Below are positions 281-11,840 of a stretch of DNA of 12,142 bases, piece after piece. This DNA is from Candidatus Hydrogenedentota bacterium. GTDB taxonomy: Bacteria; Hydrogenedentota; Hydrogenedentia; Hydrogenedentales; JAEUWI01. The translations under genes and the position numbers were made by a program. How positions within the stretch are numbered: position 1 is the first letter of the stretch; every line of letters begins with the position of its first letter. The DNA is taken from the NCBI GenBank assembly GCA_030430835.1, contig JAUIKJ010000041.1:1-12142 (forward strand), read 5' to 3'. The notes beneath the pieces are model-generated. The model did not search any database. It had not been told where the DNA came from and saw nothing but the letters and a program-made list of their open reading frames with translations.

Positions 281-1609
281 GTGCGCACGCGCCTCTTGAA
301 CCTGTGGGATACGATCGTATCGAGCTACTGGCTCGTGCCCGGCAGCATGGCCACGGGCATGGTGCTCATGGCCTTGGGCCTGCCAGTCGTCGATGCGCGC
401 TTCAAGCCGGATGTCATCCAGCAGTTCATGTGGCTGGAGATTACGCCACGGTCCGCACAGACGATTCTGGCGAGCATCGCCAGCGCAAACGTATCGATCG
501 TCGGCGTCGTCTTTTCGATCACGATCCTCACGCTGTCGATCGCGTCGTCGCAGTTGGGGCCGCGTCTGCTCCGAACCTTCATGGCGGAACGCTCCACACA
601 CTTCGCTCTGGGGCTGTATCTCTCAACGGCGGTGTACTGTCTGATTCTTCTCACCATCGTGAAGGATATCGAGAACAACGGCTTTGTGCCGCACCTCTCC
701 ATGATATTTGCGCTGCTCTGTGCCATCTTCGGCCTGGGATATCTCATCTTCTTCATCCACCGCGTGGCACAGTTGATCCAGACGCCGAACATTGTCGAGT
801 CCGTGGCCTGCGATTTGGATCGTGCGATTCTCCGCCTCTTCCCCAAGGCGCTTGGCGAAGGCGGTTCGCCCCTGGATCGGCCGGAGGATCTTCCGGCGGA
901 AGACGCCTTCGCCCCGATACAGGCACGCAACGAGGGCTATCTGCAGGGCCTGGATCAAGAGGATCTCTTTCGTCTCGCGAGACGCGAGGACGTGCTTGTC
1001 CGTTTCCTCCACCGGCCGGGGCAGTTTGTCGCGCGCGGCGAAACGATCGCGGCCGTCTGGCCCGCGGAGAAGTTTTCGGAGGACCTGGAATCGGCACTGA
1101 ACGAAATCTGTGTTTTCGGCAACCGCCGCACACCGCGGCAAGATCTCGAATGCGCCATTGATGAGCTGACGGAGGTGGCCGTGCGCGCCTTGTCCGCGGG
1201 GATCAACGATCCCTTCACCGCGGTGAACTGTGTCGACCGGCTGGGCGCGGCCCTCGCGCGGCTCGCACAACGCGAGATACCCAGCGCCTATCGCTACGAC
1301 GACGCGGGTGCGTTGCGCGTCATCGTGCAACCCGAGAGCTTCTCCTCCGCGCTGAACGCGGCCTTTGACCAGATTCGGCAGTATGGATGTGAGAGTGTCG
1401 CCATTCTGATCCGCATTGTTGAAGCGCTTACGACAATCGCCCGGGTGGCTCGCCGCGATGCGGATCGTGATGCCGTGGCGCGGCAAGCCGAGATGGTGCT
1501 GCGCGCGGCGGAAGCGCATATCCAGGAACAGAACGACCGCGCCGACATCGCCGAGCGCCACGCCGCACTTCAGATCATCCTCGATAACCGGCCACCGTTG
1601 GCACGTTGA
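281..1609 (+). CDS. DUF2254-type multi-pass membrane protein of unknown function
   Basis: 442-codon ORF with GTG start at 281. AAGGAGGG Shine-Dalgarno at 266-273. N-terminal half has several hydrophobic helices (LVPGSMATGMVLMALGLPVV, IVGVVFSITILTLSIASS, LGLYLSTAVYCLILLTIV, LSMIFALLCAIFGLGYLIFFI). C-terminal half is soluble. Overall architecture resembles DUF2254 family proteins. TGA stop at 1607-1609. Confidence 0.7.
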   Translation: MRTRLLNLWDTIVSSYWLVPGSMATGMVLMALGLPVVDARFKPDVIQQFMWLEITPRSAQTILASIASANVSIVGVVFSITILTLSIASSQLGPRLLRTFMAERSTHFALGLYLSTAVYCLILLTIVKDIENNGFVPHLSMIFALLCAIFGLGYLIFFIHRVAQLIQTPNIVESVACDLDRAILRLFPKALGEGGSPLDRPEDLPAEDAFAPIQARNEGYLQGLDQEDLFRLARREDVLVRFLHRPGQFVARGETIAAVWPAEKFSEDLESALNEICVFGNRRTPRQDLECAIDELTEVAVRALSAGINDPFTAVNCVDRLGAALARLAQREIPSAYRYDDAGALRVIVQPESFSSALNAAFDQIRQYGCESVAILIRIVEALTTIARVARRDADRDAVARQAEMVLRAAEAHIQEQNDRADIAERHAALQIILDNRPPLAR

Positions 1610-1775
1610 GGGGACGACGGTGGTGGCATGGATATTGCGCTTTGATTCGGCAGACCGCAATGGCCCCCTAAGCATCGAAGGTTCCGGCGTCCCGCGGTGC
1701 CGGGGACTGAATCGCGTTTCTGATCGTCGTGGTTCCGATTTGCCCGTAGCACTTCGGCGCCCGCGTTCCGCTCAA

Positions 1776-1810
1776 CCCCGCGCCGAAACTTCGCCGGCGC
1801 GGGGCGTTTT
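1776..1810 (+). terminator. GC-rich hairpin (CCCCGCGCCG / CGGCGCGGGG, 9-nt loop) followed by CGTTTTCCC; candidate intrinsic terminator or leader attenuator between the DUF2254 gene and the encapsulin operon
   Basis: Perfect 10-bp inverted repeat 1776-1785 / 1795-1804 with a short T run at 1807-1810. Confidence 0.4.
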
Positions 1811-1893
1811 CCCGCACCGACCGGGTTGCGCACCGAACCCACCGGCGCGTGTCCGGCGCGAGCACCATAGATACCCAACCCAAGGAGACGAAG

Positions 1894-2250
1894 ATGACCA
1901 TTGAATACCACGAGCCGCCATCCGAATTGAGCGCGCGCACGCGCGATCTCCACCGCGCCTATTGCAGTGTGGTCGAGGAGTTCGAGGCCATCGACTGGTA
2001 CGAGCACCGGCTCGATGTGACCGAGGACGAGGAGTTGCGCAGCCTCATCAAGCACAATCAGGACGAGGAGTGCGAGCACGCGGCGATGGCGTTGGAATGG
2101 CTTCGGCGGCGCGTGCCTGCGCTGGATGCGCAATTGCGCAAGTACCTGTTTACCGAGGGCCCCCTGACCGAGGTGGGCCACGGCGAAGCGAAGGGGAACA
2201 CGGACGGCAGCCTCGGCTTGGCCAAGGCAACGAAAGGAGAGAAGGCATGA
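1894..2250 (+). CDS. Encapsulated ferritin-like protein (EncFtn), the predicted cargo of the downstream encapsulin
   Basis: ATG at 1894, preceded by GGAG at 1883-1886. Protein MTIEYHEPPSELSARTRDLHRAYCSVVEEFEAIDWYEHRLD...EECEHAAMALEWLRRR carries the EncFtn-type four-helix-bundle half-ferritin iron-binding motifs (EEFEA, EHAAM). C-terminal extension ...GNTDGSLGLAKATKGEKA resembles the G/S/L-rich encapsulin targeting peptide. Stop TGA 2248-2250 overlaps the encapsulin ATG (ATGA). Confidence 0.85.
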   Translation: MTIEYHEPPSELSARTRDLHRAYCSVVEEFEAIDWYEHRLDVTEDEELRSLIKHNQDEECEHAAMALEWLRRRVPALDAQLRKYLFTEGPLTEVGHGEAKGNTDGSLGLAKATKGEKA

Positions 2251-3050
2251 AGAGCCTACTCAAACGGGATATTGCACCCGTCACCGAGAAAGCCTGGAAA
2301 CTGATCGACGCGGAAGCGACCGAACTGCTGCACACACACCTGAGTGCGCGCAGCGTGTGCGACCTGTCGGGTCCGCATGGCTGGGAACATGCCGCGGTCA
2401 ACACGGGCCGCCTGACCCTTGCCGAGTCCCAGAAGGACCAGGACATCGCATGGGGCACGCGTGAGGTGTTGCCGCTGGTCGAGGTGCGGGTACCCTTCCG
2501 CATCGCACAGATGGAGCTGGATTCCGTGGATCGTGGCCTGCAGAATCCCAACCTGGATGCACTGGAGCAGGCCGCGCGCAAGATCGCCACCTTCGAGGAA
2601 CGTGCGATCTACCATGGCTTCGAGGCCGCGGGTATCGCAGGCATCCGCGAGGCATCGCCGCATGCGGCGATCACGTTCCCGAAGGACCCGGCGAAGTACT
2701 CGCATACCATCGCGGCGGCCATTGAACAGCTGAAGGCGGCGGGCGTCGAAGGCCCCTATGCTGCCGTGCTGGATACGGATCGCTACCGCACCCTGATGCA
2801 GAGTGTGGAGCCCGGCTTCCCGCCTGCGCGGGTGGTGGAGCAGTTGCTGGAGAGCCACGCGATCTGCTGGAGCCCCGGCATCGACGGGGGTGTGGTGGTG
2901 TCGCAACGTGGCGGCGATTTCGAGCTCACGATTGGACAAGACCTCTCCATCGGATACGCGGAGCACGATCGCGACGAGGTGGAGCTGTTCTTTACGGAGT
3001 CCTTCACCTTCCGCGTGATCGAGGGTGCGGCAGCGGTTGCGCTGAACTGA
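2247..3050 (+). CDS. Family 1 encapsulin nanocompartment shell protein (linocin M18 / HK97-fold)
   Basis: Internal ATG at 2247 of the 1962..3050 ORF, overlapping the upstream stop. [24 protein letters not shown]...GPHGWEHAA...[10 protein letters not shown]...[15 protein letters not shown]...[41 protein letters not shown] aligns along its full length with Thermotoga maritima encapsulin as I recall it ([52 protein letters not shown]). Confidence 0.92.
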   Translation: [267 protein letters not shown]

Positions 3051-3074
3051 AGGGGACACAGACAGCCTCGCTTT

Positions 3075-3105
3075 GCCCGGGCCGGCGACGGTCCGGGCAT
3101 TTTTC
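3075..3105 (+). terminator. Rho-independent terminator of the encapsulin operon
   Basis: GCCCGG(3075-3080)...CCGGGC(3093-3098) stem, immediately followed by ATTTTT (3099-3104), 25 nt after the encapsulin stop. Confidence 0.6.
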
Positions 3106-3271
3106 ATAGCCTAGTCCTTGCCGGATGCACGTGCGCTTTTGCGTGGTCCTTGCACAATGCAAAGCAGACCTGGTTCCCACCCCTCAGGGTGTAACGAATG
3201 TAGGCGAATTTTCTGGCATCGAAGTTGCATTACCCAGACACCGCAGACGCGGGCAACAAGGAGGACAGAAA

Positions 3272-3727
3272 ATGACAAAGACATTCATCGCCGCTCTATG
3301 CACCGTCGCGGCATTCACCTTTACCGGCTGTCCGACGGTCCCGGGCACCTTTGAAGTGTGGGTCGTGAACACCAGCGGAACGGTCACCGTAACGAACGTC
3401 AAGTTGGTGAACGATGCCGACATGGACGACTTTCGCGAGTTCCCGGCGGATCAGGATCCGGCCACCGCGCGGGTGCTGACCAATGTCCCGCTCGGTGATC
3501 TGGAAGGCAATACGATTACCGTCGAAGTGACGGGCGAAACCGGCGGCCAGGTCTTGGAGGATGTTGACGCGGACATCCGTGTTCCCGATGCGCTGCAGTC
3601 AGGTTCGGTATTGGTCATCGTGCTGGGCGGCGACAACATCGTCAGTTTCAGCGGTGAGTACATTCCGCTTGAGGACGCCAGCAAGGGAGAACTGATGTTC
3701 CGCAACCATTTGCTCGGCGCGCTTTAA
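3272..3727 (+). CDS. Small secreted lipoprotein of unknown function
   Basis: ATG 3272 with AAGGAGGA at 3258-3265. Signal peptide MTKTFIAALCTVAAFTFTG|C with a lipobox-like FTGC. Mature part is Thr/Val/Asp-rich (TVTVTNVKLVNDADMDDF...). Followed by a 12-bp perfect-stem hairpin. Confidence 0.55.
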   Translation: MTKTFIAALCTVAAFTFTGCPTVPGTFEVWVVNTSGTVTVTNVKLVNDADMDDFREFPADQDPATARVLTNVPLGDLEGNTITVEVTGETGGQVLEDVDADIRVPDALQSGSVLVIVLGGDNIVSFSGEYIPLEDASKGELMFRNHLLGAL

Positions 3728-3789
3728 CCCCACTCCCGTCGGGCGTGAGCATTCCCACTCTCCCTCACGTCCCGTCCCACTCCCACCGG

Positions 3790-3821
3790 CCCCGTGCAGC
3801 GTTTCCCGCCGCTGCACGGGG
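3790..3821. terminator. 12-bp perfect-stem hairpin (CCCCGTGCAGCG / CGCTGCACGGGG, loop TTTCCCGC) between convergent genes; probable terminator, possibly bidirectional
   Basis: Perfect inverted repeat 3790-3801 / 3810-3821. Lies between the lipoprotein stop (3727) and the hydrolase stop (3863). A weak T-run follows on the + side only. Confidence 0.45.
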
Positions 3822-3862
3822 CTCGTCGTTTGATTGGACGTGGGAAGTGGATCCGCCGCGGG

Positions 3863-4807
3863 TCAGGCGGCGTCGTCCAGCGTCGCCGCGGGTGCGATGG
3901 GATGGCGCGAGAGGAAATCGAGGATCTCGCTGCGGTACGCCGGGTCGCGCTGGATATAGAAGTGATCGGCCCCTTCGATAATGCGGGTCTCGTGGTGCTG
4001 CATCACGCCTTCCGCCCGGCGCACATCGGCCACCAACGGGTCAAGGCTGCCGATGATAAACAGCACCGGTACCTCGTTGACGCGCACGTAGGACTCGGGT
4101 ACCGCGAGCGCGCCCATGGAATCGGCCAGCGCCGCGAGGGCGGCTTCATCGTTCATGTAGCCGACCACCGCGTTCGCGACGGTGACGGTCATCCAATCGG
4201 GTTCTTTGCCGCCGGGGCGCAGGGTCTCCAGCAGTACATCGAAACCGCCTCCTTCCTTGAGGGCCTTGGCCAGGGCCTGCGCCACGGGCAGCCGTTCTTC
4301 CGGCTCCGCCCAGCCGAAGCCGCTGATCACCGCGCTCTGGAAGCGGTCGGGATAGCGGGACAGCGCCTTGAAGGAGATCATGCCGCCGAGCGAGTGGCCG
4401 CCGACGTGTGCCTTCTCGATGTCCAGATGGTTCATCAGGCGAACGATATCGTCGGTCAACCGCAGACCATAGGCCTCGGGGTCGTGCGGCTTGTCGCTGT
4501 AGCTGTGACCGCGGCAGTCGAGCGTGATCACGCGGTAGTGCTCGGCGAGCGCATCGAGGGTGCCGGATCGCCGCCAGGTGAGATCGCCATTCATGGCGAA
4601 GCCATGCAACAGGATCAGGGGCTCACCGCTGCCCTGATCGGTGTAGTGCAGACGAACGCCGGCAGAGTCGAAGTACTGCCCTTCCAGGGGGTAGCCCATG
4701 AGCGGGGCGAAGGACCCCCAGGCGGTGTAGCCGGTCACCAGGACGAGCGAGGCGAGGAGATAGGACTTCTTGCGAACGATGAACTGAGGTAGGCTGGAGG
4801 GATTCAA
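3863..4807 (-). CDS. Membrane-anchored alpha/beta-fold hydrolase
   Basis: TTG start (complement of 4805-4807) with AAGGAG 5 nt upstream on the minus strand; there is no in-frame ATG nearby. N-terminal hydrophobic anchor SYLLASLVLVTGYTAW, HGF oxyanion-hole region, and GHSLGG nucleophile elbow (GxSxG). Confidence 0.8.
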   Translation of the reverse strand: MNPSSLPQFIVRKKSYLLASLVLVTGYTAWGSFAPLMGYPLEGQYFDSAGVRLHYTDQGSGEPLILLHGFAMNGDLTWRRSGTLDALAEHYRVITLDCRGHSYSDKPHDPEAYGLRLTDDIVRLMNHLDIEKAHVGGHSLGGMISFKALSRYPDRFQSAVISGFGWAEPEERLPVAQALAKALKEGGGFDVLLETLRPGGKEPDWMTVTVANAVVGYMNDEAALAALADSMGALAVPESYVRVNEVPVLFIIGSLDPLVADVRRAEGVMQHHETRIIEGADHFYIQRDPAYRSEILDFLSRHPIAPAATLDDAA

Positions 4808-4957
4808 TGGGGCTCCTTTTCTAGAACGCGGAGCGCATCATATCTCATAACTCGTTTTATAGCAATACTTTAAGACCAAACGGTCAGATATGGAATCGTT
4901 AAGAAACAAACACTTCGTAGTATTACATCCCGATGTCAACAATATCCTCGAGCGTGC
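4808..4957. promoter_or_regulatory. AT-rich divergent intergenic/promoter region between the hydrolase (-) and the EamA transporter (+)
   Basis: About 150 bp of markedly AT-rich sequence (TCATATCTCATAACTCGTTTTATAGCAATACTTTAAGACCAAAC...TTCGTAGTATTACATCC) set in otherwise high-GC DNA. Contains several TATA-like hexamers on both strands. Exact promoters not resolvable by eye. Confidence 0.4.
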
Positions 4958-5914
4958 ATGGCACGGTCACCAACGGGGATAATGGGGGCAGCTATGACTG
5001 CCCACGATGCCGCCCTCCTCCAGAACACCGCCAGCCTGAACCGCCGCGCCGCGACCGAGATGTTCTTCGCCGCCTTCGCGTTTTCGGTGATGAACTGTGT
5101 CGCCCATGGCCTCGGCGGGGTCTTGCCATGGCCCGTGATCGCCTGTGGCCGAATCGCCCTGACGCTGGTCTTTGCGCTCGCGGTTCTCTGGCGGCTGGGG
5201 CGCAAGCCGATCGTGGTGGGCACCCCGGCGCTGTGGTGCCGCAGCCTGGCCGGATCCTGCGGCCTGCTCTTCACATTCTATAGCCTGACGCACCTCTCGA
5301 TTACCGAGGCTTCCGCCATCATCGCGACCAACCCGCTCTGGCTCGTGGTCATCCTCGCGGTGGTTTTTCGCGAACCGATCCACGCGCGCACCTGGTTCTG
5401 CATGGCGCTGGCGCTCTTCGGGGTATGGCTGATCAAGCGGCCGTCTTTCTCGCTCGACGCGCTGGCGGGCGACAGTTTCCCCGTCTTCGTCGCACTGGCG
5501 GGCGCCTTTGTCATTGCCGTGGCAAAGGTGGCGCTGAGCCGCTGTGGTGACCTGCCGGCCACCGCCGTGGTGGCGCACTACGCGGCGTGCGCCACCATTG
5601 TTTCTGCAGCGCTCGCCTTTGCCCTCGGTGGCTGGACACAGTCCGGACCGGCGCTGGCCGCATCGGCCTGGGTCGGTCTCGCGGCGATGGGCGTCGCCGG
5701 TACCTTTGGCCAGTACTTCATGACCCGCGCCTACGGCCGTGGCTACGCGCCGATGGTCGCGCTGATCGGGCTCGTGCACATCGTGTTCGGCGCCGCCTAC
5801 GACGTGTTTATCTGGGGCCACGCCTTTGACCGCTGGACGGCGATCGGCATTACGACCATTGTCGCCGCCGTCGCCTTCAGCGTCACCGCGAACGCAGGGC
5901 GCGCGAAGGCCTAG
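4958..5914 (+). CDS. DMT superfamily (EamA-like) transporter, about 10 TM helices
   Basis: Highly hydrophobic 318-aa ORF with two repeated 5-TM halves and G/A-rich helices typical of EamA/DMT permeases. True start may be ATG 4958, 4982 or 4994 (4994 has GGGGG 5 nt upstream). Stop TAG 5912-5914. Confidence 0.75.
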   Translation: MARSPTGIMGAAMTAHDAALLQNTASLNRRAATEMFFAAFAFSVMNCVAHGLGGVLPWPVIACGRIALTLVFALAVLWRLGRKPIVVGTPALWCRSLAGSCGLLFTFYSLTHLSITEASAIIATNPLWLVVILAVVFREPIHARTWFCMALALFGVWLIKRPSFSLDALAGDSFPVFVALAGAFVIAVAKVALSRCGDLPATAVVAHYAACATIVSAALAFALGGWTQSGPALAASAWVGLAAMGVAGTFGQYFMTRAYGRGYAPMVALIGLVHIVFGAAYDVFIWGHAFDRWTAIGITTIVAAVAFSVTANAGRAKA

Positions 5915-5944
5915 GGGCGCCTCGGAAGCAACGCGCCCGGTGGA

Positions 5945-6808
5945 CTACTTCAAGATCGCGCGTGCGCGGAGCCAGTCGAGGCAACGGTCGGGCCAGGTTG
6001 CGAAGGCGGGATCGCCACCACCAAGCCCGAGGCCGTGGCGGCCTTTCTCGTACACGTGCAGTTCGGCGGGCACGCCGTGCTGCACGCAGGCCTCGTAGAG
6101 CATCAACGCGTTCTGCACGGGGACGGATTGGTCTTCGGTCGTGTGGACGATAAAGATAGGCGGCGTCTCTTCGTCTACGTTCTTCTCGGCGGACATCCTC
6201 GTGATCATGTCGTCGTCGGGGTTCTCGCCGAGCAGATTCTTACGCGATCCCTTGTGGGTGTAGGGGTCGGTCATGGTGATGACGGGGTACCCCAGAATCG
6301 CGAAGTTCAGTGCCGCGCTCGCCCACTCGATCGGGTCGGCCGCACCGAGGTCGCCGCCCTGCGGCTGCGTCGCCGCAGTTGCGGTGAGGTGACCGCCTGC
6401 GGAAAACCCAATCATCCCGATACGCGCAGGGTCGACCTTCCAGTCGCCCGCGTTGGCGCGCACGGTGCGTACGGCGCGTTGTGCGTCCATCAGCGGCACG
6501 GGATGGCCGTAGTCCGGTGCATGGCGGTAACGCAGCACGAAGGCCGCGATGCCCGCCTCGTTGAGCCATTCCGCGATCTGCTGCCCCTCGTGATCCACGG
6601 CAAGGTTGCCATAGCCCCCGCCGGGACACACGACGACACCCACGCCAGTCGCCTCGTCCGGAAGGTAGACGGTGAGCGTTGGATCGTGGCCCTCGCCCGT
6701 ACCCTTCGACATCGGCGGACCGTCTGGCCAGAGCGGGAGCACAAGCGGCTCAGCGGTGGCGGTGAGGGCAAGGCATGTGAAAGCCATGGCGGCGAGCAGG
6801 GTCTTCAT
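5945..6808 (-). CDS. Secreted alpha/beta-hydrolase esterase (GFSAGG serine esterase, BD-FAE / prolyl-oligopeptidase-like fold)
   Basis: Start taken at the internal ATG (complement of 6806-6808) giving signal peptide MKTLLAAMAFTCLALTATA|EP. GGGAGA lies 8 nt upstream. Motifs VVVCPGGGY (HGGG-type oxyanion region) and GFSAGGHL nucleophile elbow. The 55 codons upstream of this ATG in the ORF track run into an inverted-repeat element and are not coding. Confidence 0.75.
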   Translation of the reverse strand: MKTLLAAMAFTCLALTATAEPLVLPLWPDGPPMSKGTGEGHDPTLTVYLPDEATGVGVVVCPGGGYGNLAVDHEGQQIAEWLNEAGIAAFVLRYRHAPDYGHPVPLMDAQRAVRTVRANAGDWKVDPARIGMIGFSAGGHLTATAATQPQGGDLGAADPIEWASAALNFAILGYPVITMTDPYTHKGSRKNLLGENPDDDMITRMSAEKNVDEETPPIFIVHTTEDQSVPVQNALMLYEACVQHGVPAELHVYEKGRHGLGLGGGDPAFATWPDRCLDWLRARAILK

Positions 6809-6886
6809 GTGGCATATCTCCCAAGGGTTCGTGCGAGTATAGCGCCTGCGGCGAAAGAATGCTGCATGAGGTGTAGTGCGCGTCCC

Positions 6887-7074
6887 GGAGTGCATGAGCT
6901 TGCTCATGCCTCGCGACAGCGAGACGCGCCAGTAGGCCTCCGGTGCTACCCTGAAGCTCGGGCGCATCCTCATGTTTCAAGTCTTCGTCCGCACCTACGC
7001 GCTTCCACGGCCTGCACCGTAATGACGCGTCTCGCGGCGAAACGCCACGAGGCATGAGCAAGCTCATGCACTCC
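6887..7074. repeat. Inverted-repeat element: 27-bp perfect terminal inverted repeats (GGAGTGCATGAGCTTGCTCATGCCTCG / reverse complement), extended imperfectly by GAGACGCG / CGCGTCTC, around a spacer of about 134 bp; MITE-like or paired operator
   Basis: 6887-6913 is the exact reverse complement of 7048-7074. 6921-6928 is the reverse complement of 7026-7033. Each arm itself contains the palindrome GCATGAGC-NN-GCTCATGC. Lies in the intergenic region between the dapB stop and the esterase start. Confidence 0.55.
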
Positions 7075-7110
7075 CCGGAGACAGACTGCGACGTCCTGCA
7101 CACCCCCGGG

Positions 7111-7911
7111 CTACTTGAGTCCCAGCACGTCCTGCATGTCGTAGAGGCCGGGCTTGGCCTTGACGGCGAAGCGGGCGGCGACGAGCGCGCCGCGTGCGAA
7201 ATTGTCGCGGTTGTGCGCCTTGTGCGTCAGCTCGATGCGCTCGCCCTGGCCGATGAAGGCGACGGTGTGCTCGCCCACGACATCGCCACCGCGCAGGGTG
7301 TGCATGCCGATCTCGGCGCGCGGGCGCTCGCCGACCATGCCTTCGCGGCCGTGCGCGACGTGCTCATGGTAATCGAGACCAAGACCTTCCGCCGCGCGTT
7401 CGGCGAGGCGCACTGCGGTGCCGCTCGGCGCGTCCTTCTTCAGGTTGTGGTGGATCTCGGTGATCTCGCAGTTGTAGTCGAGCCCGAGGATCTCCGACAC
7501 CTCGCGCGTGAGCTTGAAGAGCAGGTTCACGCCGACGCTCATGTTCGGTGCGAAGACGATGGCGATCTGCTTCGCGAGTTCCGCGAGTTCCGCCTTCTGC
7601 GCGTCGTCCAGCCCCGTGGTGCCGATGACGCAGGGCACGCCCTTCTCCACCGCAAGGCGCACCGTGGGCATGCAGACATTCGCCAGGGTGAAGTCGATGA
7701 TTGCGTCGCTCTTGCCGATCTCCGCGCCGGGGTCGTTGCCGACGACAAGCGTCTGCGGCTTGCCGCTTTCGCTGCCCACGGTGAACTCCATCCCCGCGTT
7801 CTGCGGCGCATCGATGATGCCGCCGATTTCGAGGTCCTCCGCCGCGGCGGTCAGTTCAAGGATGCGTCGTCCCATGCGCCCGAGGGCGCCGGCCATACCG
7901 ATTCGAATCAT
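7111..7911 (-). CDS. dapB: 4-hydroxy-tetrahydrodipicolinate reductase
   Basis: MIRIGMAGALGRMGRR N-terminal NAD(P)-binding motif. Central EIHHNLKKDAPSGTA and C-terminal GEHTVAF...ELTHKAHNR motifs match DapB along the whole length. ATG is the complement of 7909-7911. Confidence 0.93.
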   Translation of the reverse strand: MIRIGMAGALGRMGRRILELTAAAEDLEIGGIIDAPQNAGMEFTVGSESGKPQTLVVGNDPGAEIGKSDAIIDFTLANVCMPTVRLAVEKGVPCVIGTTGLDDAQKAELAELAKQIAIVFAPNMSVGVNLLFKLTREVSEILGLDYNCEITEIHHNLKKDAPSGTAVRLAERAAEGLGLDYHEHVAHGREGMVGERPRAEIGMHTLRGGDVVGEHTVAFIGQGERIELTHKAHNRDNFARGALVAARFAVKAKPGLYDMQDVLGLK

Positions 7912-8061
7912 GTTCTAGGTCCTGTAGTGTCGTATTTATTTCGTAGCGCTTACTACGTCCCAACATCCCCCGCCCTTCGGGCACCCCCTTCAAAGGGGGA
8001 CAAGGAGCGGTTGAATCAATTTTCAGCAATTACCTGAATTTTGACCGCATCACCTCGACGC

Positions 8062-8233
8062 CGTCATTCCCGCGAAGGCGGGAATCCACCAACGTGCAGG
8101 AAGCCTCAAGTCATCGAGTTCGCGTCGTGCGCGACAACATTACCTCCGGGCGTTTGTCCCGCGCTCGACATCCTTCTCTTCGCCCCGCCGTCTTGCGCCG
8201 CGCTGGTGGATTCCCGCCTTCGCGGGAATGACG
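8062..8233. repeat. dRS3-like (ATTCCC-N8-GGGAAT) inverted-repeat-bounded element of about 172 bp, similar to the Neisseria intergenic elements formed by dRS3 pairs
   Basis: CGTCATTCCCGCGAAGGCGGGAATCCACC (8062-8090) is the perfect reverse complement of GGTGGATTCCCGCCTTCGCGGGAATGACG (8205-8233). Each terminal repeat is itself an ATTCCCGC...GCGGGAAT palindrome. Located between dapB and the large dehydrogenase gene. Confidence 0.6.
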
Positions 8234-8304
8234 CAACGCGGGGTGGTCGCGGGTGAGGCTGGATATTCTCGCTTATCTCTGTCGTGCGGCGCTACCCCTG
8301 TCGC

Positions 8305-11301
8305 CTACTTCAAGGTCTCCAGATACGCCACCAGGTCGCTCAGGTCCTGCGCGGTCATGGCGGCGGCGAGGCCGGTGGGCATGAGCGACACGGCACTCTC
8401 GACCTTCTGTTTCACGTCGTCGTTCTCGATGCGGAGCACCTGCCCCGCGGAATCCATCAGTTCGAAGCCGTCCTTGTCTTCGCTGCGGATGAAGCCGCTG
8501 AGGAAGCCTTCTTTCGCGCTGTTCACGATGTAGACCTTGTACTCGTGCGAGATGGCGGCGCTCGGGTTCAGGATGGATTCGAGCAGGGCCTCGCGGCCGT
8601 ATTTCTCGCCGATCTTCGAGAGGTCCGGGCCGACTTCCTTGCCTTCGCCATTCACCTGGTGACAGCGGCTGCACTCGGCCTTTTCCGGGCTGAAGAAGAT
8701 CGTGCGGCCCGCTTCCGCATCGCCGCTCATCGCGACGAGATCCGCCATCGGCGGCAGCGCGTTGCCCTCGCTGGTCACTTCGCGCGGCAGCAACTGTTCC
8801 GCCATCATGCGCACATCGTCGAAGGCGCTGGCGTGGGCGAGTTCCTGCACCTCGATGCGCAGGTCCGCCGGGAGCTCGTCCTGTTCGACCAGATTCATCA
8901 GCAACACCGCGCCGGACTTGTTCCCGCCGAGCTGTTGCACGGCGTCGATGCGAACGAGCTTGGAGTAGTCCGCGTTGGTGACGATCTCCTGCAGCACGGG
9001 CGTCGTGTCCATGTGCTGGAAGGCGCTGATGGCGTTCAGGGCGTGCGTGCCAATGAGCGCGTTCTCGTTTGCGAGCAGGGGCTTCAGTGCCGCGACGGAT
9101 TCCTCGGCCTTGCTCTTCATGGCGTTCGGTGCGAGGCGCGCGATGGCGTTGAGCGCGTCGCGCCGCGGGGGGAGTTCGGCGCTCTCGTCAAGCGCCGCCG
9201 TCAGCAGCCGCGGCAGCAGGATGACCTGCCGCGTCTCGGCGGCGAAGCTGGAGGCGGCGGGCTGCAGGGCGGCGTCATCCAGTGCAGCGTCGAGCCAGGC
9301 CTGGAAGGCGTCGTCCTGGATGGTCTTGCGCCAGGCGTCGCCCTCGTCCCGCGCGAGCAGATGCAGGGTGTATTCCGTCACCTCGGCGGGCAGGCCAGTG
9401 TCGAGGAGGGCAACCAGCAGCGCACCGGCCGCTTCCGTACCCTGCACTTCGATTGCCTTGATCGCCTGCTGGCGCAGATCGGCGCTGAGCGCGTTGTTCC
9501 GCGCCGCGGCCTCTGCCACGGGGAAAGCCTCCGCCGGATGCCACTGGATCGCCAGCCCGGCGAGCCGCGCGTCCCAGGTATCGCCCGCTTCGCGCAGGAC
9601 CTGCGTGAAGCAATAGGACTCGATCCCGCGCGCGCCAATGCCGAGGGCTTCGCGGTAGAAGCGGTCTTCGCCGTCGTACTGCAGCGCGAGTTGCGGCACG
9701 ACCTTCGTGCGCAGGCCATTCGCCTCGGGACGGCGCGTCAGTTCGAGGAGGAGTTGGCGGCGCACCTGCGGGTCGGAGTCGTCCTGAAATTCGTAGTCGA
9801 GAAGTTTCGTGGGTTCGTATTCCGCGACAATGCGCATCGCCAGGATACGATCCGAGACTGCATTGCGGTCGGTAAGCGCCTTCAGTACCTCGGCGCGCAT
9901 CGCTGGATCCGTGGCCAGAATCCAGGCACCGCGTGCGCGTGCGGTTGCATTGTCATTGGCGAAGAGCGATTTGATCGTTTTCTCTTGACCGTTTTCGATC
10001 ATCGAACGTGCGATGAGATCGCCGGTGTAGCGCAGGGCATGGTTTGCGGATTGCAGCGCCGCTGCGACATGGCTGTCCTCCGCGCCCATGTGTAGCCTAG
10101 GCACATCGTAGGCCGTTCCCACCGGCGCAAGCCGGTAGATCCGCCCGCGCAGCACATCGCCCATCCGGTGTCCGCCCACGCCTGGGTCATACCAGTCCGA
10201 AATGAACACCGATCCATCCGGCGCGGTACACACGTCGCTCGGTCGGAACCAGGTGTCGTCTTTGCCCTCGACGAGGATCTTCATCTCCGCGCTGAAGCCC
10301 GCGCCGTCGGGGATGGGACGATAGGAGCGGATCACGCGTGGACCGGCATCCGCGTGGATCAGCGTGTTCCGGTAGGCCTCGGGCAACAAGTCGCCCTCGT
10401 AGAAGAGCATGCCCGTCGGTGATCCGAAGCCGGTCTTGAGCATGGTGGGCACGGTGCCGGGGCGGTCGGTGTTCCAGTGGACTTCGTCGAGCTTGCGGTC
10501 GCCCTTGCGGCGTGGCCAGTAGCCGTAGCTGCCGCCTTCCATCACGTAGTTGATCCGCGTCTGCTCGTTGCCGTCGTCGTCGTTGTCGGAGATGAAGATA
10601 TTGCCGAAGGAATCGAGCGCGGGTTCGTAGTTGTTGCGCATGTTCTCGGCGAGCAGCTCGAGGTGTTTGCCCTCGAGGTCCGTGCGCAGCACGGTCGCCG
10701 CGCGGTAGGGCGCGTCCTTCCCCGCGAAGACGCGGTGGCCGGACTTGTCGGTCACGTCGAGACCGCGATCGCCCACGCTGAAATAAAGCCAACCGTCGGG
10801 ACCATAGACCAGCCCGTGGATCGCGTGGTCGTGGTCCACCCCGCCGAAGCCGGTGAGGATGACCTTCTTCTCGTCGGCCACGCCATCGCCATCGGTATCG
10901 CGCAGATAGAAAAGATCCGGCGACTGCGCGACGTAGACGCGATCCCCCAGCACCGCGATACCCAGCGGCGCCTGCAGGCTGGGATCCTGATAGAAGGTCC
11001 GGGCGTCATCCGCCTTGCCGTCGCCGTCTGTGTCTTCCAGCACGACGATGCGGTCGCCCTCGGGGCGGGCCATGTCCTGATTGAAGAGCCGGTAGTTCGC
11101 CGCTTCCGCCACCCAGACCCGGCCCTCGGCGTCCACGTCGATACAGGTGGGGTTCACCAGCATCGGCTCCGCGGCGAAGAGCGTCAGCTCGAGGCCCTCG
11201 GCCACGCTGAGCGACGCGAGGGATTCCTCGGCGGATTGCTGCGCGGCAGCGGGCAGCGCAAGCAGCAGCAGTGCAAGACAGGCGAGACGGTTCCTGGACA
11301 T
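8305..11301 (-). CDS. Exported PVC-type membrane-bound dehydrogenase domain protein: N-terminal glucose/sorbosone-dehydrogenase-like beta-propeller, central HEAT/ARM repeats, C-terminal cytochrome c domain
   Basis: 998-aa ORF. ATG is the complement of 11299-11301, with GGGAG 8 nt upstream. Signal peptide MSRNRLACLALLLLALPAAAQQ. N-terminal propeller-like region with repeated DGDG/DTDGDGxAD motifs. Ala/Leu-rich helical repeat middle. CSRCH haem-binding motif near the C-terminus (EKAECSRCHQVNGEGKEVGPDLSKIG). Stop TAG is the complement of 8305-8307. Confidence 0.85.
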   Translation of the reverse strand: MSRNRLACLALLLLALPAAAQQSAEESLASLSVAEGLELTLFAAEPMLVNPTCIDVDAEGRVWVAEAANYRLFNQDMARPEGDRIVVLEDTDGDGKADDARTFYQDPSLQAPLGIAVLGDRVYVAQSPDLFYLRDTDGDGVADEKKVILTGFGGVDHDHAIHGLVYGPDGWLYFSVGDRGLDVTDKSGHRVFAGKDAPYRAATVLRTDLEGKHLELLAENMRNNYEPALDSFGNIFISDNDDDGNEQTRINYVMEGGSYGYWPRRKGDRKLDEVHWNTDRPGTVPTMLKTGFGSPTGMLFYEGDLLPEAYRNTLIHADAGPRVIRSYRPIPDGAGFSAEMKILVEGKDDTWFRPSDVCTAPDGSVFISDWYDPGVGGHRMGDVLRGRIYRLAPVGTAYDVPRLHMGAEDSHVAAALQSANHALRYTGDLIARSMIENGQEKTIKSLFANDNATARARGAWILATDPAMRAEVLKALTDRNAVSDRILAMRIVAEYEPTKLLDYEFQDDSDPQVRRQLLLELTRRPEANGLRTKVVPQLALQYDGEDRFYREALGIGARGIESYCFTQVLREAGDTWDARLAGLAIQWHPAEAFPVAEAAARNNALSADLRQQAIKAIEVQGTEAAGALLVALLDTGLPAEVTEYTLHLLARDEGDAWRKTIQDDAFQAWLDAALDDAALQPAASSFAAETRQVILLPRLLTAALDESAELPPRRDALNAIARLAPNAMKSKAEESVAALKPLLANENALIGTHALNAISAFQHMDTTPVLQEIVTNADYSKLVRIDAVQQLGGNKSGAVLLMNLVEQDELPADLRIEVQELAHASAFDDVRMMAEQLLPREVTSEGNALPPMADLVAMSGDAEAGRTIFFSPEKAECSRCHQVNGEGKEVGPDLSKIGEKYGREALLESILNPSAAISHEYKVYIVNSAKEGFLSGFIRSEDKDGFELMDSAGQVLRIENDDVKQKVESAVSLMPTGLAAAMTAQDLSDLVAYLETLK

Positions 11302-11416: not shown

Positions 11417-11485
11417 CTCCCCTGTGTCACCTCGACCGAAGGGAGAGGTCTTAGATTTCTCCCTTCGGTCGAAATGACACGGAAC
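11417..11485. repeat. Hairpin repeat copy 1: 15-bp perfect stem TCGACCGAAGGGAGA / TCTCCCTTCGGTCGA with an 11-nt loop, extended by GTGTCAC...GACAC pairing
   Basis: Stem arms at 11432-11446 and 11458-11472. Flanks GTGTCA / TGACAC extend the pairing. Confidence 0.6.
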
Positions 11486-11495
11486 ACCCCTGCAC

Positions 11496-11529
11496 CCTCG
11501 TCATTCCCACCTGCGCGGGAATGACGAGG
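11496..11529. repeat. dRS3-like palindrome CCTCGTCATTCCC-ACCTGCGC-GGGAATGACGAGG
   Basis: 13-bp perfect arms around an 8-nt centre. Matches the ATTCCC-N8-GGGAAT pattern. Confidence 0.6.
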
Positions 11530-11540
11530 CTGAGTAATCG

Positions 11541-11644
11541 CTCCTGTGTCACCTCGACCGTAGGGAGAGGTCTTGTGTTCCCATGTCACCGCGTCTTTAG
11601 CGAGAGGTCTTGGATTTCTCCCTACGGTCGAAATGACACGGAAC
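11541..11644. repeat. Hairpin repeat copy 2, with a 37-bp internal insertion that duplicates GAGAGGTCTT, and a compensatory stem change
   Basis: Arms TCGACCGTAGGGAGA (11555-11569) and TCTCCCTACGGTCGA (11617-11631). Relative to copy 1, the A:T pair at one stem position is T:A on both arms, so pairing is preserved. Confidence 0.6.
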
Positions 11645-11676: not shown

Positions 11677-11840
11677 CGTCATTCCCGCGGAGGCGGGAAT
11701 CCAGCGATCGTGGAGTACACGCGTATGCATGCGATGCGCGCCTTGGTGCGGTGATACGCGGTGACGTTGGTTGCGCCGGATGGCGCAGCGTGGTTGTTTG
11801 GCGCTTCGCGCACTGGATTCCCGCCTCCGCGGGAATGACG
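11677..11840. repeat. Second dRS3-like inverted-repeat-bounded element (28-bp perfect terminal inverted repeats, spacer of about 108 bp)
   Basis: CGTCATTCCCGCGGAGGCGGGAATCCAG (11677-11704) is the exact reverse complement of CTGGATTCCCGCCTCCGCGGGAATGACG (11813-11840). The interior is unrelated to the interior of the 8062-8233 element. Confidence 0.6.

Follow-up and report, generated by a model that had tools for sequence, protein, structure and literature searches.

In the 12,142-nt stretch of DNA analysed here (the window), which makes up a whole contig, the spacer between dapB and an esterase gene holds a perfect 27-bp inverted repeat that we read, with a probability of roughly 0.8, as a REP doublet, that is, a REPIN-like non-autonomous element of a RAYT-associated family. 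REPs are common small selfish DNA elements that depend on a dedicated transposase (RAYT) for their copying, and the element in the window is probably an ordinary genomic passenger and no regulatory switch. Once it is recognized as a REP doublet, the repeat is no longer liable to be taken for an esterase regulator, a riboswitch or a phase-variation switch.

Structure and setting of the repeat

The features of the locus, in window coordinates, are as follows.

5945-6808, minus strand: esterase gene (BD-FAE / Abhydrolase_3, Pfam), the downstream gene, with its ATG at 6808
6883-7079: whole hairpin-forming element, including three weak outer pairs (from the folds and from the insertion relative to locus L118)
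6887-6913, plus strand: left REP unit, with tag GGAGT at 6887-6891, stem GCATGAGC at 6892-6899 and loop TT at 6900-6901
6914-7047: spacer of 134 nt, an imperfect palindrome (from the folds and a half-alignment)
7048-7074, minus strand: right REP unit, identical to the left unit on the minus strand, with tag GGAGT at 7074-7070
7111-7911, minus strand: dapB (Pfam DapB_N and DapB_C), the upstream gene

An earlier note on this DNA had placed the repeat in the dapB-esterase intergenic region, and the Pfam assignment of both minus-strand genes bears this out. The region spans 6809-7110 (302 bp) between two genes of the same strand, which on the minus strand are arranged as the dapB stop codon, 36 nt, the 188-nt element, 78 nt and the esterase ATG. 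The named relatives of the window's dapB protein are labelled Candidatus Hydrogenedentes, and the closest relative, at locus L118, is 78% identical and retains the gene order DUF7133/cytochrome c, dapB, esterase; the genes adjoining dapB differ in more distant relatives. In L118 the dapB-esterase spacer is 43 bp long and contains no palindrome, which argues that the element is an insertion specific to the window's lineage and no conserved regulatory region, as judged from this sequence comparison. An assembly artefact was considered and rejected on the grounds that the repeat has an internal position and that dapB and the esterase gene on either side of it are complete and arranged as in L118. 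The scans of the region for other features were negative, with no Rfam match at E <= 1 in the window or six related loci, no sigma-70-like promoter in 6500-7500 (the scan covered sigma-70 alone), no intrinsic terminator in the dapB-esterase spacer and no U-tract after the stem. Nor did the Pfam scan, of ten large ORFs covering 281-11301, find a regulator gene in the 12-kb window.

The two 27-nt arms returned by the repeat finder, GGAGTGCATGAGCTTGCTCATGCCTCG on the left and CGAGGCATGAGCAAGCTCATGCACTCC on the right, are 100% complementary and lie 134 nt apart, just as the earlier note had described them. Among perfect inverted repeats with loops of 20-500 nt, the longest in each of 300 first-order Markov randomisations of the window measured 10-15 nt, and the arm motif, with up to three mismatches allowed, occurs in the window at these two sites only, against 0.01 expected. 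The proposed extension of the arms to about 45 bp holds in interrupted form and fails as a continuous repeat, because pairing is broken by an asymmetric internal loop of 5 nt (6914-6918) against 12 nt (7036-7047). Beyond this loop a 13-nt inner repeat, 6919-6931 with 7023-7035, is complementary at 12 of 13 positions, and on the outer side 6883-6885 can pair weakly with 7077-7079 beyond a bulge.

Each arm is built around a single 23-nt unit that has the short palindromic form of a tagged REP, with a perfect 8-bp stem and a TT loop. In the left unit the loop is followed by the second half of the stem, GCTCATGC (6902-6909), and then by CTCG (6910-6913), which pairs with the other arm. The 8+2+8 palindrome noticed earlier in each arm is indeed there, with a TT centre in the left arm, an AA centre in the right one and mirrored flanks. 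The tags lie outside, so that the units 6887-6909 (+) and 7052-7074 (-), which are identical in sequence, form a head-to-head (HH) homodimer, and the identity of the two units accounts for the 27-bp perfect repeat. The doublet thus consists of two REPs in inverted orientation, as in a REPIN, and it is extragenic, lying between dapB and the esterase gene. It is the one doublet (two units) of the GGAGT family in the 12-kb window, in which a tblastn search found no RAYT gene.

The spacer contains a small hairpin in 7036-7047 and further short pairings that lead up to an apical loop of about 23 nt. Folded alone it gives z = -3.1, and when a spacer half was aligned with the reverse complement, an equal or better score was reached by 40 of 2000 shuffles. 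It resembles nothing else in the window or in loci L001-L123, and tblastn of RAYT against the window revealed no transposase remnant between the arms. Because the units are identical and the spacer is palindromic, the whole element folds into one hairpin: the predicted ssDNA fold of -72.5 kcal/mol (z = -10.4) joins the arms, the 13-nt repeat and the spacer pairs in a single structure, so that doublet and spacer have the predicted hairpin of a REPIN in ssDNA or RNA. Folding of a transcript through the region, which had been suggested as a check, gives an intergenic RNA predicted to be very stable, at -161.7 kcal/mol (z = -7.3).

The symmetry of the arms also affects gene calling. Identical ORF starts (MSKLMHS) on the two strands had been put down to a by-product of the repeat, correctly, as ATGAGCAAGCTCATGCACTCC is read from each arm. 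Two mechanical ORF calls that begin inside or cross the REP arms are artefacts of the repeat: 5945-6973 (-) is a 342-aa version of the esterase that starts at 6973 and runs through the REP, and 7054-8037 (+), of 327 aa, is antisense to dapB and begins at the MSKLMHS codons. The REP-doublet identity explains these spurious ORFs starting within the arms, which could mislead automatic annotation.

Related units flank RAYT genes in other genomes

The exact tagged 23-mer GGAGTGCATGAGCTTGCTCATGC lies between genes in a Chloroflexus MAG (L105) and in the JGI metagenome contigs L124, L127, L129, L139 and L142; the family units of L105, L124, L127, L139 and L142, like that of the window, are located between ORFs. 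A second, inverted GGAGT-tagged hairpin lies 5-40 nt away in five of these six loci. A scan of metagenome contigs with a looser pattern returned 29 loci, most of which are coincidences within conserved coding sequence. A distinct subset, comprising L124, L129 (twice), L139 and L142, together with L105 from a scan of genome contigs, has in common the tag, the TT centre and a downstream element ending GCACTCC, in the form GGAGT-GCATGAGC-TT-GCTCATGC, followed after 5-40 nt by 8 nt-AA-8 nt-ACTCC. On the opposite strand the second hairpin of this subset likewise reads GGAGT followed by 8-TT-8, which makes an inverted pair with the tags outside. A metagenome scan that required both flanks (AGTGCATGAGCNNGCTCATGCCTC) gave no match. 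The bare 16-base palindrome GCATGAGCNNGCTCATGC has at least 117 single sites in genome contigs of unrelated taxa, where about 140 would be expected by estimate; among the matches listed, most look intragenic from their sequence context, and L105 is a true family member. The element had no match in plasmids and phages (blastn) or in viral contigs (exact scan).

At L129, at least six REP units within 1.5 kb surround a 181-aa ORF, and this ORF is a RAYT: it matches NCBIfam NF047646 with 120.7 bits (cut-off 80; E = 4e-35), and it also matches Pfam Y1_Tnp and PDB 4ER8 (TnpA-REP), the latter at E = 7.7e-8. Homologues of this enzyme were found by protein search, and their contigs were taken without reference to the DNA motif; two of them, L163 and L164, were chosen as the NCBI homologues richest in alanine and arginine. 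GGAGT + 8-TT-8 units flank every one of the RAYTs with 65% (L153), 60% (L157), 51% (L160) and 36% identity (L163, 69% G+C, from an organism other than the source of the window), and the stems of these units vary by compensatory changes (GCACCAGC/GCTGGTGC, GCATCAGC/GCTGATGC, GCAGAAGC, GCAAGAGC and GCGGCGGC). The arrangement that defines a REPtron, a RAYT flanked by the same REP, is thus found for this family at L129, L153, L157, L160 and L163. Matches to the family format were distributed as follows.

Unrelated loci, 881 kb scanned: 0 matches
dapB loci of the window's relatives, 58 kb scanned: 0 matches
RAYT loci, 72 kb scanned: 14 matches, of which 12 are no more than about 0.8 kb from the RAYT gene

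The two sets of control loci together amount to 0.94 Mb with no match. Counting of pairs across the units gave 99% paired cells and changes on both sides in five of the eight stem pairs, figures that are inflated by the preselection of the units as hairpins; for this reason the enrichment next to RAYT genes, and not a covariation statistic, is the real evidence. The tag GGAG plus T is invariant in all 12 distinct units.

The window doublet differs from the other members in having two identical units and a long, imperfectly palindromic spacer: it measures 188 nt with a spacer of 134 nt, whereas the other doublets of the family measure 49-86 nt and are mostly heterodimers. In the short-spacer heterodimers (L105 3946-4001; L142 5500-5548; L139 2281-2339) the GGAGTGC/GCACTCC tags can form a 7-bp stem that closes two different hairpins, giving a three-way junction, whereas the window homodimer forms a single long hairpin.

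The RAYT of L164, which is 43% identical to the L129 enzyme, has different REP flanks (GGGAAC GCGGACT TT AGTCCGC at 380-445 and 1010-1060), which fits a co-diversification of REP and RAYT. A junction between a dehydrogenase (isocitrate/isopropylmalate type) and a radical SAM gene recurs among these loci, with a single REP doublet in L124 (4500-4600) and a RAYT gene plus at least five doublets in L129 (1-1531); the RAYT of L153-L159 sits there too. This suggests long residence of REP and RAYT at one junction, with loss or gain of the transposase gene.

Known systems and alternative readings

In the parts of the REP survey drawn on here (PMC3733652), REPs are described as units of 20-40 bp with an unpaired tag, a stem of 6-13 bp and a loop of 2-3 nt that often fits TY. 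They form homo- or heterodimers, termed head-to-head when the tags are outside, with spacers of usually 20-100 bp that sometimes have complementary ends or inserted DNA, and they lie mostly between genes of the same strand; GTAG-type REPs flank RAYT genes. The window element resembles the head-to-head dimers of this GTAG superfamily (Di Nocera et al. 2013, PMC3733652; including Stenotrophomonas SMAG) in its tag-stem-loop modules, and the likeness extends to homo- and heterodimers, complementary spacer ends, same-strand intergenic position and REPtrons. It differs in that its 134-nt spacer exceeds the usual range and in its tag: GGAG matches GTAG at positions 1, 3 and 4, but the G at position 2 places it outside the variants (GYAG, GYRG, GTRG, GTMG, GTGG) listed in those parts of the survey, which spans 8 phyla (PMC3733652).

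The term REPIN denotes a doublet of inverted REPs that folds with its spacer into a hairpin, and such doublets have been proposed as the unit mobilised by RAYTs (PMC3116915). The REPINs of Pseudomonas fluorescens SBW25 (Bertels & Rainey 2011, PMC3116915) likewise consist of inverted REPs around a less conserved spacer that fold into a long hairpin, are extragenic and are linked to RAYT genes flanked by the same REPs, but their REP sequence and tag are unrelated to those of the window. The GI doublets of SBW25 have 71 bp between the first residues of their invariant 16-mers, against 188 nt for the whole window doublet, and a population of copies is documented in that one genome (PMC3116915), whereas the window doublet is known from a single 12-kb contig. 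In E. coli, TnpA-REP requires the 5' GTAG both to bind and to cleave, and A3 and G4 of this tag are free to serve in recognition of the cleavage site (PMC3479197). The E. coli REP/BIME and TnpA-REP system (4ER8, PMC3479197) also uses a hairpin at whose foot four 5' nucleotides are unpaired; its alternating Y and Z units, often with different stems, resemble the heterodimers of L105, L129, L153 and L160, and the enzymes are of the same family. However, the tag here is GGAG(T) and not GTAG, though A3 and G4 are kept (PMC3479197), the window stem is perfect and not mismatched, with a loop of 2 nt, and the L129 RAYT is distant from TnpA-REP.

Against this background several other readings of the repeat can be weighed. 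A recombinase could flip the 134-nt segment between the 27-bp repeats and so switch esterase transcription, and the locus does show the typical geometry of invertons, perfect inverted repeats bounding a short segment that precedes a gene start by 78 nt. We consider such an inverton very improbable: with a palindromic spacer, inversion would have almost no effect, the arms are part of a RAYT-flanking REP family that lies beside unrelated genes with spacers down to 5 nt, the sigma-70 scan found no promoter of that type around the repeat, and no recombinase domain occurs in the ten large ORFs of the window (Pfam; 281-11301), though a recombinase could be encoded elsewhere.

DDE transposases mobilise MITEs, whose insertion creates target-site duplications. 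The 188-bp size, perfect terminal inverted repeats, intergenic position and absence from the orthologous site would suit a MITE that arose by deletion from a DDE-transposase insertion sequence and has the 27-bp arms for terminal inverted repeats, and classical MITEs such as the Correia elements of Neisseria are similarly small, non-autonomous and intergenic, with possible effects on transcripts. The flanks, in contrast, ...GCGCGTCCC and CCGGAGACA... (GTCCC|element|CCGGA), show no direct repeat at either the 27-nt or the extended boundary, each terminal repeat can fold on itself into a hairpin and bears a conserved tag at the 5' side, the transposases linked to the family are of the Y1 and not the DDE type, and no plasmid or phage record matched. 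The chance that the element is a classical MITE is therefore very small, and the MITE-like terminal repeats of the earlier note give way to self-folding tagged REPs, which lack a target-site duplication and point to the HUH tyrosine transposases that act on ssDNA. The broader claim of that note, an inverted duplication of mobile type with a long hairpin as opposed to independent operators, stands: it is supported by the asymmetric tag and mirrored loop, by the recurrence of the REP in other genomes where it flanks RAYT genes, and by its absence from the L118 spacer.

A dedicated structured RNA in the dapB-esterase transcript (a processing site, attenuator or small RNA), selected at this locus and not mobile, would agree with the very stable predicted RNA fold (z = -7.3) and with same-strand neighbours that make transcription probable. 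We find it highly unlikely, since Rfam gave no match at E <= 1 in the window and six related loci, the nearest orthologous locus (L118) does not conserve the structure, no U-tract follows the stem and the 23-mer unit occurs in unrelated gene contexts.

Least probable of all is a dimeric transcription factor bound to two GCATGAGC-NN-GCTCATGC palindromes and looping the DNA at the esterase promoter, for although a perfect 8+8 palindrome in each arm is the typical format of an operator, and the L105 palindrome lies downstream of an ORF whose C-terminal sequence looks TetR-like by eye, the identity of the arms extends over asymmetric flanks and a mirrored centre, which is unexpected for independent operators, the centres are 161 bp or about 15.3 helical turns apart and hence out of phase, the palindrome is absent from the orthologous L118 spacer, the window encodes no regulator gene, the 23-mer stands beside unrelated genes, and the bare palindrome occurs in unrelated taxa at about the chance rate and, among the matches listed, in mostly apparently intragenic positions. 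The looped double operator that the earlier note had offered as its second reading is thus not upheld.

Proposed mechanism, wider meaning and neighbouring elements

Taking the element as a REP doublet, we propose that the two tagged hairpin units and the partly palindromic spacer fold into one long hairpin in ssDNA or RNA, and that elements of the GGAGT family are substrates of a RAYT clade (HUH/Y1 enzymes akin to the TnpA of IS200/IS605). On the model of E. coli TnpA-REP, such a RAYT would bind the REP hairpin and its 5' tag in ssDNA and would then cut and rejoin strands without target-site duplications. The window copy would have arrived by RAYT-mediated insertion into the dapB-esterase spacer, and its perfect symmetry may reflect a recent origin or selection for the hairpin. 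We infer that the source genome holds more copies, together with a cognate RAYT. As the element lies between same-strand genes that are only 43 bp apart in a relative, it is probably transcribed together with dapB. In that case the 27-bp stem could, speculatively, shield the dapB message from 3' exonucleases or be a target of RNase III; if the REP hairpin acts as such hairpins do elsewhere, it would uncouple the mRNA levels of dapB and the esterase.

The identical tagged 23-mer is found in at least three distant lineages: the source MAG of the window, which from the names of its dapB relatives appears to be Hydrogenedentota, the Chloroflexus MAG and the L124/L129 lineage with its RAYT. Because the GGAGT + 8-TT-8 format is kept down to 36% RAYT identity, it is conceivable, though in our judgement unlikely, that the REP-RAYT system is passed from phylum to phylum or that its recognition code has stayed unusually constant, in which case the window homodimer could be a recently active or newly formed REPIN variant. 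Cross-phylum transfer, if true, would bear on the view of strictly vertical REPIN-RAYT inheritance and on how such systems persist. The catalogue of these elements gains a GGAG-tagged REP family and a RAYT clade in poorly studied, MAG-only phyla, in which REPs break assemblies and inflate intergenic regions.

The window also contains a second REP family, CGTC ATTCCCGC GAAG GCGGGAAT CCA, in which a CGTC tag is followed by an 8-bp stem beginning with AT around a 4-nt loop, and then by a CCA tail. This unit format agrees with that published for the CGTC-1 family, the type to which Neisseria dRS3 belongs. The copies of the second family are the following.

8062-8088 / 8207-8233: dimer with the CGTC tags outside
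11677-11703 / 11814-11840: dimer with the CGTC tags outside
11499-11526: extra unit

These dimers lie in two other intergenic regions and have unrelated spacers; the first explains much of the longer DUF7133-dapB spacer of the window (393 bp, against 153 bp in L118). The presence of CGTC-1-type dimers on the same contig indicates that the source genome accumulates such elements. The idea that the three REP dimers of the window are copies of one MITE was rejected, their spacers being mutually unrelated. A third palindromic repeat, GTGTCACCTCGACCGAAGGGAGAGGTCT / AGATTTCTCCCTTCGGTCGAAATGACAC, occurs once intact (11424-11480) and once split by a 48-nt insert (11546-11568 with 11617-11639), and its only Rfam matches are weak, below-threshold ones to microRNA models. 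The intergenic region at 11.3-11.9 kb is thus a mosaic of repeats.

Elsewhere on the contig, an encapsulin shell gene (1962-3050, +) carries a Linocin_M18 domain from residue 99 of a 362-aa ORF, which points to an N-terminal extension or else to a start codon placed too far upstream. The gene adjoins one for a DUF2254 membrane protein (281-1609, +) and is followed by a 200-aa ORF (3125-3727, +; no Pfam match) that could be cargo.
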